This document shows positions 5,373 to 6,678 of a stretch of DNA of 64,000 nt, in pieces. The number at the start of each line of letters is the position of its first letter. The stretch's first letter is position 1. The position numbers and the translations under genes were made by a program. The notes below the pieces were generated by a model. It saw only the letters and a program-made list of their open reading frames with translations. It did not search any database and was not told where the DNA came from. This DNA comes from Magnetococcales bacterium (GTDB lineage Bacteria; Pseudomonadota; Magnetococcia; Magnetococcales; JADFYX01). The DNA is taken from contig PEAM01000003.1 in assembly GCA_002753565.1 (NCBI GenBank), forward strand, positions 9,828 to 73,827. Reading direction: 5' to 3'.

Positions 5373-6678
5373 TCACCACTCCACCACCCTCAGCCCCTCA
5401 CCACCCGGAGCCATCTGCATCGTCTTCACCTTCCGCCCTTTGGAATTTCCTTCCTTCAACTCCTTGACCACCTCTTTCTCCTCTCCACCGGAGAGGGGGT
5501 CAGCTCCTGCACCGCCATTGAGAATATCCGAAGCAATACCACCTGTCAGGATATCATTGCCATCCCCGCCCCGCAGAGCGACCCCGGTAGCTCCCGTGGT
5601 AGAGAAGGTATCATTTCCCTCACCGCCAACCAAAACCGAAAGACCATACGCTGCCGCATCCACTGTAAGCCCCATACTCTCTGGGGCCAGAACACCCATT
5701 TTAAAGCCATCATCAGAACTAAAAAGACGAATACCATCAACCACCCCTTCAGAAACAAAGCCTTGGTTGAGAACCAACAAAGCGGCATCGGCTACCGTCA
5801 CCGAACTACCATCGGCCAAAGTCGCTGAGGATTCCAGTTCAATGATATTTCCTTCATACTCCACCGGATCATGAGTCACATAACCCAAATCAATGGATTC
5901 CAATCCAGCCTCCGCCAGAGTCATCAACTCCCCACTGTCACTCTCCCCATCCTGATCCAAATCCTGCCAGATCTGCACCTGTGAAAAGGCTGAATCATTC
6001 GCATTGAACACACCGTCATTGTTCTCATCCAAGGAGTGCAATGAATCAAACCCAGAGGCAAAACTCCCCCCACTATAGACACTGGAGAACATCTCAGAGC
6101 GGTCATTGATGATACCGTCACCATCGAGGTCGTGAACTAAAAAACCATCACCTGAACCTACCCAGCCGGTCGATTCAACTTGGCCGTTAACGGTCATATC
6201 GAAGAGTGCAGTGGAGTCTGCTTGACTGGTTAGCTCAAAGCCATCGTTGTCGAGGTCGATGATGAGGGGGTCTTCAAACCACGAAGAAGCAATATAAGTG
6301 GAAACAGCTAAACCTATTTGTGCACTAAAAACAACACCAACCCCTCCTGTCAAGCCTGCAAAGGCTGCACCTGCTACAGTTCCAATTACAGCAGCCACAC
6401 CTTAAGACTGCGGCTTCTTCATATTTTTCTTTATGTACTAATGAAGCAACCTGTAATCCAACAACCACACCGCTTACTACAGCAGCTCCTTTAGATACTA
6501 AATTAAGCGTTTTAGCAATTGCAGGTGAGACAGCCTTTGCTATTAGTTCCGATCTAGAAGCCACACTACCCATAAATAAATCTATCGCTACACCTGTTTC
6601 AGTTGATGGAACATACCTATCTGGATTAAGACTAGGTTTAGTAGTGGTAGAGGGAGAGTTTTCAGGTATTATAGACAT
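5373..6678 (-). pseudogene. Truncated, frameshifted RTX paralogue with its own variable N-terminus, fused in frame to an hlyC-like 3' tail
   Basis: ATG is the complement of 6676-6678, with AGGAG 6 nt upstream. The track splits the gene into 6325..6684 and 5373..6398, whose frames overlap near 6390-6400. Removing one base there joins ...EEAAVLR to VAAVIGTVAGAAFAG.... From DPLIIDLDNDGFELTS onward it matches the giant protein up to GGDGNDILTG. It then ends ...GGEEKEVVKELKEGNSKGRKVKTMQMAPGGEGLRVVEW, which resembles the C-terminus of the 7620..8204 acyltransferase. Confidence 0.7.
5545..6238. repeat. Copy B of the duplicated RTX 5' module, inside the truncated paralogue
   Basis: See copy A: constant 1999-bp offset and near identity. 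Confidence 0.95.

Follow-up and report, generated by a model that had tools for sequence, protein, structure and literature searches.

Organization of the locus

The DNA analysed (hereafter the window) is a stretch of 64,000 nucleotides taken from a metagenome-assembled genome (MAG) of the Magnetococcales. The features of interest lie on the minus strand and are given here in the order of transcription; 'copy A' and 'copy B' designate two ORFs with related modules, and 'unit 1' and 'unit 2' the groups of genes to which the membrane protein genes belong.

9737-8712 (-), IS transposase with an rve integrase core (Pfam rve_3, rve and HTH_32), adjoining unit 1 upstream
8204-7620 (-), hlyC1, the resident, intact gene for a toxin-activating lysine acyltransferase (194-aa ORF; Pfam PF02794, E=3.8e-34)
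7606-6746 (-), gene of unit 1 for a 286-aa multi-pass membrane protein (no Pfam family; 28-35% GC)
6684-6325 (-), 119-aa ORF, the probable frameshifted N-terminal part of copy B
6398-5373 (-), 341-aa ORF (copy B), which carries the hlyC-like fossil tail
5754-6272 (-), self-processing module (SPM) of copy B, with a match to the FrpC SPM and a predicted Asp43-Pro44 clip site at 6267-6272
5545-6170 (-), tract nearly identical to copy A (3546-4171), inside the self-processing module
5480-5544 (-), copy-B-specific RTX nonapeptides, 72% identical to copy A (Pfam HemolysinCabind at residues 276-300, E=1.6e-6)
5480-5489 (-), junction GGTGGAGAGG (Gly-Gly-Glu), the last bases common to copy B and RTX copy A (3481-3490)
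5373-5479 (-), fossil 3' end of a second hlyC gene (hlyC2), 35 codons (EKEVVKELKEGNSKGRKVKTMQMAPGGEGLRVVEW) with the native stop at 5373-5375
5201-4764 (-), gene of unit 2 for a 145-aa membrane protein (no Pfam family), 171 nt downstream of the fossil stop
4696-2 (-), RTX copy A, a giant ORF of at least 1565 aa that continues past the window start

In NCBI the 341-aa protein has an identical entry, MBF0454697.1, and HlyC is listed as MBF0454695.1; both derive from a Magnetococcales MAG with a contig of 188.8 kb. The NCBI annotation of copy B covers the 341-aa part only. The HlyC domain of hlyC1 occupies residues 70-193 (match to ApxC 4WHN, E=3.4e-14), and the gene probably starts internally, at Met77 (7976). 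Ahead of this probable start the ORF carries a 76-residue acidic N-terminal extension (window 7977-8204); the N-terminal extensions found in the HlyC family are unrelated, of variable length and mostly basic or of low complexity. The region directly upstream of hlyC1 (8712-10738) holds the rve-family IS transposase gene (-) and a Transposase_31/YhgA-like (Rpn-type) gene with DUF4351 (+). With these two genes upstream, the RTX region is marked as belonging to a mobile or rearranged island.

The domain order in copy A is an N-terminal Gly-zipper domain, an Asp-Pro bond with SPM, RTX repeats, a cadherin-like domain, a subtilase S8 domain, a P-domain, further RTX repeats and a further cadherin-like domain. 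For a clip-and-link RTX protein it is unusual to combine all of these, from a Gly-zipper-like N-terminus to a subtilase S8 and a proprotein-convertase P-domain, in one chain. Over its C-terminal half the 145-aa protein (4764-5201) can be assigned to a family of small membrane proteins that is widespread, shows the motif GRNWARIIYL and has no Pfam family of its own; the members retrieved (L011-L021) are 32-43% identical and occur in contexts without hlyC or RTX genes.

Copy B, the host ORF of the fossil

The module common to copies A and B is, as judged from its sequence, an FrpC-type SPM, to which three nonapeptides are added in copy B. The initial annotation had called copy B a truncated RTX paralogue, and RTX repeats are indeed present; the SPM plus three nonapeptides is the more precise description. 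Copy B matches the structure of the FrpC SPM (PDB 6SJW, E=1.3e-31) in an alignment that begins at Pro44, with Asp43 standing directly before it, and the Asp-Pro bond (the predicted clip site) is followed by an SPM of about 177 residues. The SPM family PF26745 is part of the precomputed annotation for P0001. SPMs cut an Asp-Pro bond upon calcium binding and can link the released N-terminal fragment to lysines (PMC7078468).

The nonapeptides ahead of the junction are GGDGNDILT, GGIASDILN and GGAGADPLS; of the fourth only GGE is left before the hlyC tail takes over, and copy B has neither a full RTX block nor a type I secretion signal. Because it is truncated inside a nonapeptide, copy B is without its native C-terminus. 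At the other end, the 119-aa and 341-aa ORFs overlap by 74 nt in different frames (window 6325-6400, -), and the last 25 residues of the 119-aa ORF are Cys-rich and look out of frame. When the two ORFs are joined, about 137 residues precede the Asp-Pro bond, compared with 150 in copy A, 143 in L004 and 162 in L006 (two of the comparable loci listed below). Copy B is probably frameshifted between its N-terminal domain and the SPM, although the frameshift could be a sequencing error. Since it is without a C-terminal secretion signal and apparently frameshifted near its 5' end, copy B is most likely a pseudogene. It was also considered whether copy B might be a naturally short protein, comparable to P0002 (426-aa ORF) and P0004 (442 aa), and this reading was rejected: the comparison of lengths does not decide, P0004 is interrupted by an IS, with the remainder of a giant RTX gene behind it, and copy B ends inside a nonapeptide.

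The hlyC-like tail

A comparison of the 341-aa ORF with the 194-aa HlyC ORF by BLASTP yielded one ungapped alignment, of residues 307-341 with residues 160-194, in which 19/35 positions were identical and 28/35 positive (E=5e-10, pairwise, with composition adjustment). The match between the C-termini that had been noticed by eye is thereby borne out, as is the common terminal sequence: the 105 coding nucleotides of the tail are 65% identical to those of hlyC1, and the final 16 nt are the same in both (GGTGGTGGAGTGGTGA; tcaccactccaccacc on the plus strand). The extent first given for the fossil, 5373-5486, was right within two codons; homology to copy A ends at 5480, and the part that belongs to hlyC only is 5373-5479.

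A profile HMM of the family was built from 49 HlyC homologues, with the window's own hlyC left out. The 38-residue tail scored 26.9 bits against profile positions 134-170 of 173, whereas the maximum among 2000 composition-preserving shuffles of the tail was 11.0 bits on the same HMM. In a six-frame scan of the 64 kb (2468 fragments) the only matches were the resident hlyC and the tail (E=3e-5 for the tail), and no further hlyC fragments were found in the six frames of the whole window or in the 21 fetched loci. The C-terminus of the fossil reads KTMQMAPGGEGLRVVEW followed by the stop codon, by which the terminal motif of the subfamily, KTLQPAPDGxGMAVVEW, is largely kept, and the fossil matches approximately two thirds of those columns in the last 35 positions that are conserved at 80% or more.

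The fossil spans about a quarter of the acyltransferase domain, with no match over the whole of its approximately 125 residues, has no start codon of its own and is read only as the end of the 341-aa ORF. The catalytic His/Asp dyad is absent: according to the alignment with ApxC, the corresponding residues of hlyC1, H83 (in SPNH) and D152 (in WLID), precede residue 160, at which the homology to the fossil starts. Toxin-activating acyltransferases (TAATs) rely on this dyad (PMC8510554). The fossil is almost certainly inert as an acyltransferase, as it cannot acylate with the catalytic His and Asp and 75% of the fold missing.

Judged by these comparisons, the tail is to be regarded as a genuine relic of a second hlyC gene, which would once have stood upstream of the 145-aa membrane gene. 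The initial annotation had arrived at the same second copy, and the true hlyC 3' end found in frame behind the truncated RTX block agrees with it.

The junction

The identity of copies A and B at the DNA level stops exactly at GGTGGAGAGG, inside a nonapeptide, and the hlyC-like codons begin with the next base. The junction GGTGGAGAGG may also have been common to the lost hlyC2, because the HlyC family carries PFGG(x)E at this place (P0062: PFGGEKEIV). Just before the shared part, hlyC1 reads GPQEAQNELLKQL, like P0098, and the (S)GGEEKEVVKEL of the fossil resembles the common PFGG(x)E lineage (e.g., P0062, as above, and P0069, PFGGNEEVVKEL). By chance alone one fusion in three would be in frame, and selection need not be invoked.

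Divergence of the two units

Between the fossil and hlyC1 the proportion of synonymous differences (pS) was 0.62 and that of nonsynonymous differences (pN) 0.28, values that carry a wide error as they come from 35 codons only. Pairs of intact hlyC genes from other loci and taxa, compared with each other and with hlyC1, gave a pS of 0.46-0.90 and a pN of 0.16-0.30. Regarding amino acid identity, the 19/35 to hlyC1 compare with 15-22/35 to about 26-27 other members of the family. Four substitutions of the fossil (F->S, L->M, P->M and A->R) are unseen in the family at columns conserved at 80% or more, which fits some decay of hlyC2 after its inactivation. As a whole the pattern fits an hlyC2 that was once functional, distinct from hlyC1, of the same subfamily and long diverged from it.

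The remaining parts of the units were compared as well. No similarity was found between the 145-aa and the 286-aa membrane proteins, and the N-terminal domains of copies A and B are alike only in a Gly-rich stretch just before the SPM (E=0.015) and otherwise unrelated. The pS of 0.62, the equal distance from the rest of the family and the unrelated membrane genes and N-terminal domains are the reasons why the fossil is not taken for a recent copy of hlyC1. Two divergent cassettes placed side by side fit better than recent copying of one.

A tandem duplication in situ of the unit of hlyC1, membrane gene and RTX gene, with the joint of RTX and hlyC as the duplication junction or the product of a later deletion between the copies, is an improbable account of the locus. 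With ends in the 3' region of hlyC and in the RTX block, such a duplication would give exactly the joint observed, and the two SPM copies share 626 nt (3546-4171 in A, 5545-6170 in B) with a single mismatch, at position 4075. The other parts of the units are, however, not equally alike: the hlyC tail has diverged as described, being no nearer to hlyC1 than to the hlyC genes of other taxa, and the membrane proteins and N-terminal domains share no overall similarity. The near-identical tract itself has diverged flanks (72% identity over the adjoining 65 nt and 76-85% over the adjoining 100 nt), and the homology of A and B is bounded by the Asp-Pro codons and by the junction. A near-perfect tract between diverged flanks is expected from conversion between old paralogues, unlike a recent duplication of the whole unit, and for this reason the 626 nt look like the trace of a later, recent gene conversion; in a MAG, the near-identity could also be the consensus of an assembler. 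Of the two origins offered in the initial annotation, tandem duplication was thus disfavoured by the divergence of the units, and serial insertion, in the form of two divergent cassettes brought next to each other, fits.

An assembly artefact, in which the contig would merge reads of two strains or loci and no single molecule would carry the junction, is considered slightly less probable again. The source is a MAG, and a near-perfect repeat of 626 nt at a distance of 2 kb invites errors, among them the consensus effect just mentioned. Against this, 65 nt of copy-B-specific sequence separate the junction from the near-identical tract, and the two sides of the junction share only about 10 nt, which is probably less than the k-mers typically used by assemblers. 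Moreover, two direct repeats in a linear path allow one order of the unique segments only.

It is very improbable that the fused tail is functional, be it as a new C-terminal property of protein B (docking of HlyC, or an export signal) or through DNA signals for the downstream membrane gene. Neither stops nor indels interrupt the 35 codons, and pN lies below pS in the comparison with hlyC1 (0.28 and 0.62); a pN below pS is, however, expected if most of the divergence accrued while hlyC2 was intact. The four family-invariant positions with residues unseen in functional members, the apparent frameshift upstream in copy B, the absence of such a tail from the ten copy B homologues inspected (of 60 matches) and the spacer at 5202-5372, which was scanned with no convincing promoter or terminator found, all speak against a function. 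Finally, a chance resemblance of short basic, Gly-rich C-terminal tails, which would be favoured by the shortness of the segment (35 aa), its richness in K, G, E and V and the failure of the general HlyC model of Pfam to match the tail even at E<=10, has next to no probability in view of the composition-adjusted BLASTP match, the shuffle test and the six-frame scan, in which the tail was the sole second match, co-linear with the end of the profile and in the same stop codon context.

Comparable loci and searches for an intact second unit

Loci in which hlyC is accompanied by similar neighbours were retrieved from genomes and metagenomes as follows.

L004 (JGI metagenome), a 118-aa HlyC ending in ...KTLQPAPDGRGVGVVEW, an uncalled 131-aa membrane ORF and a 426-aa ORF with N-terminal domain, SPM and RTX
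L006 (Maridesulfovibrio), HlyC, a 227-aa hydrophobic protein, a 442-aa SPM-RTX ORF interrupted by an rve IS, then a 1333-aa ORF with cadherin/RTX domains and genes for type I secretion
L007 (Magnetococcales HHB-1), hlyC directly ahead of a giant of 6126 aa, with no membrane gene
L001, L002 and L008-L010 (various sources), a lipoprotein or membrane ORF directly behind hlyC and no RTX gene

In L006, Tn7-like genes (TnsA/B/C, TniQ) and IS66 genes lie upstream of the unit (L006 8001-14500). Because the unit adjoins these genes and its SPM-RTX gene is interrupted by an rve-type IS, SPM-RTX cassettes travel with mobile elements. The unit of hlyC, membrane gene and RTX gene is not universal, since L007 has no membrane gene. 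A search of the spacer between hlyC and the next gene for similarity to L007 showed that the similarity ends directly after the shared VEW-stop codons. Lipoprotein or membrane ORFs that follow hlyC with no RTX gene nearby include L001 3302-3925, L002 10398-10904 and L008 10664-11638; such pairs raise the question of what these acyltransferases modify. Judged by these loci, a unit that had lost its head would be expected to consist of just such an hlyC remnant, a membrane gene and an SPM-RTX gene.

Related genomes were searched for loci with two complete units of hlyC, membrane gene and RTX gene, as the initial annotation had proposed, and none were found; nor did the searches of genome and metagenome contigs return a relative with an intact unit of hlyC2, membrane gene and copy A. 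The search of genome contigs with hlyC1 yielded only distant hlyC genes of Caulobacterales and Hyphomonadaceae (the source genome was not returned either), and the metagenome search with the 145-aa protein and the N-terminus of copy A yielded only distant members of the GRNWARIIYL membrane family in unrelated contexts. When the tail, both membrane proteins and both N-termini were joined into one query, a protein search gave no matches. Looking up the proteins of the window by identical sequence likewise led to no contigs.

Base composition varies along both units in the same manner: the hlyC ends have 51-58% GC, the membrane genes 28-36% and the regions of the N-terminal domains 38-40%. This pattern supports a modular build of the units, and the low GC content and unit-specific nature of membrane gene and N-terminal domain suggest that these are exchangeable cassettes. 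Considered by region, membrane gene plus N-terminal domain have 28-40% GC and the flanks formed by hlyC end and SPM 49-58% (window 4700-5200 and 6400-7600; L004 9173-9568).

Proposed history

Starting from the observed homology, its position, the pattern of divergence and the tract shared by the SPMs, we infer an order of events, a use of microhomology, a loss of function and a set of parent sequences as follows. The fossil is likely to be an inert relic of hlyC2 from a second, divergent cassette, joined to copy B by one illegitimate recombination. Cassette 1 would have consisted of hlyC1, the 286-aa membrane gene and the SPM-RTX gene B, and cassette 2, which would have arrived directly downstream, of hlyC2, the 145-aa membrane gene and the giant SPM-RTX gene A. 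A single illegitimate recombination would then have joined a nonapeptide of copy B to the last 35 codons of hlyC2, probably by use of the short Gly-Gly-Glu match (GGTGGAGAG) with the PFGG(x)E region of hlyC2. This could have happened by a deletion between two complete adjacent units, or in one step by the insertion of a 5'-truncated unit 2, with a homologous crossover anchoring its other (downstream) end. The initial annotation had described a deletion running from copy B into hlyC2, which is possible; a one-step illegitimate join is equally possible. The fusion, being in frame, would have extended the ORF of copy B to the old stop codon of hlyC2 and left hlyC1 as the sole acyltransferase for gene A, and a later gene conversion would have homogenised the cores of both SPMs.

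In these terms the fossil is a dated scar, which records the head-to-tail joining of two divergent cassettes of hlyC, membrane gene and SPM-RTX gene and the loss of the acyltransferase from one of them. As the survivor, hlyC1 is left as the only candidate for activating the giant protein A. A further consequence concerns the 'hypothetical protein' MBF0454697.1 (341 aa), which the fossil marks as the product of a chimeric pseudogene and not a true member of the family; this is relevant to annotation and to the mining of SPM domains. As such it is an ordinary scar of illegitimate recombination in a mobile, IS-flanked RTX locus and involves no new mechanism.

The more interesting lead is provided by the variable cassettes of membrane gene and N-terminal domain between the conserved flanks of hlyC and SPM. 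These may form an array of exchangeable cassettes, each consisting of a low-GC membrane gene and a variable N-terminal effector domain, with the hlyC 3' end and the SPM serving as recombination anchors, a reading that is considered rather unlikely. If it held, the hlyC fossil would be the left-hand scar of a cassette displacement, and the N-terminal domains released by the SPMs would, together with their partner membrane proteins, constitute a polymorphic, possibly acylated effector/partner system of environmental bacteria.

Comparison with known systems

Regarding the TAATs of the HlyC/ApxC type (PF02794), the relic of hlyC2 is co-linear with their last 35-37 residues and keeps most of the motif K-T-L-Q-P-A-P-D-G-x-G-M-A-V-V-E-W; it differs from them in comprising about a quarter of the domain, in being without the catalytic His/Asp and a start of its own, and in the four substitutions unseen elsewhere. 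Copies A and B resemble the clip-and-link RTX proteins FrpC and ApxIVA in the succession of Asp-Pro bond, SPM and RTX repeats. [quoted passage not shown] The upstream multi-pass membrane proteins of the window, however, share no relationship with FrpD or with one another, the unit in the window includes an hlyC gene, and copy B is truncated after three nonapeptides. The low-GC membrane gene and N-terminal domain possibly have an analogy in FrpD and FrpC or in toxin-immunity pairs.

Orphan or displaced toxin-immunity modules are known from CDI and Rhs loci. The likeness lies in variable low-GC cassettes that form an array, are made by recombination and each keep a piece of a conserved flanking gene; in the window, by contrast, the variable part is N-terminal, the partner gene lies upstream and not downstream, only one displaced unit is seen, and any toxicity or immunity is hypothetical. 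In Actinobacillus pleuropneumoniae, a truncated fragment of a secretion gene adjoins apxIICA. There as here, a fragment of an operon gene nearby has been preserved as a recombination scar and testifies to an earlier gene order; the difference is that the remnant in the window is that of an acyltransferase gene, joined in frame to the RTX ORF before it.
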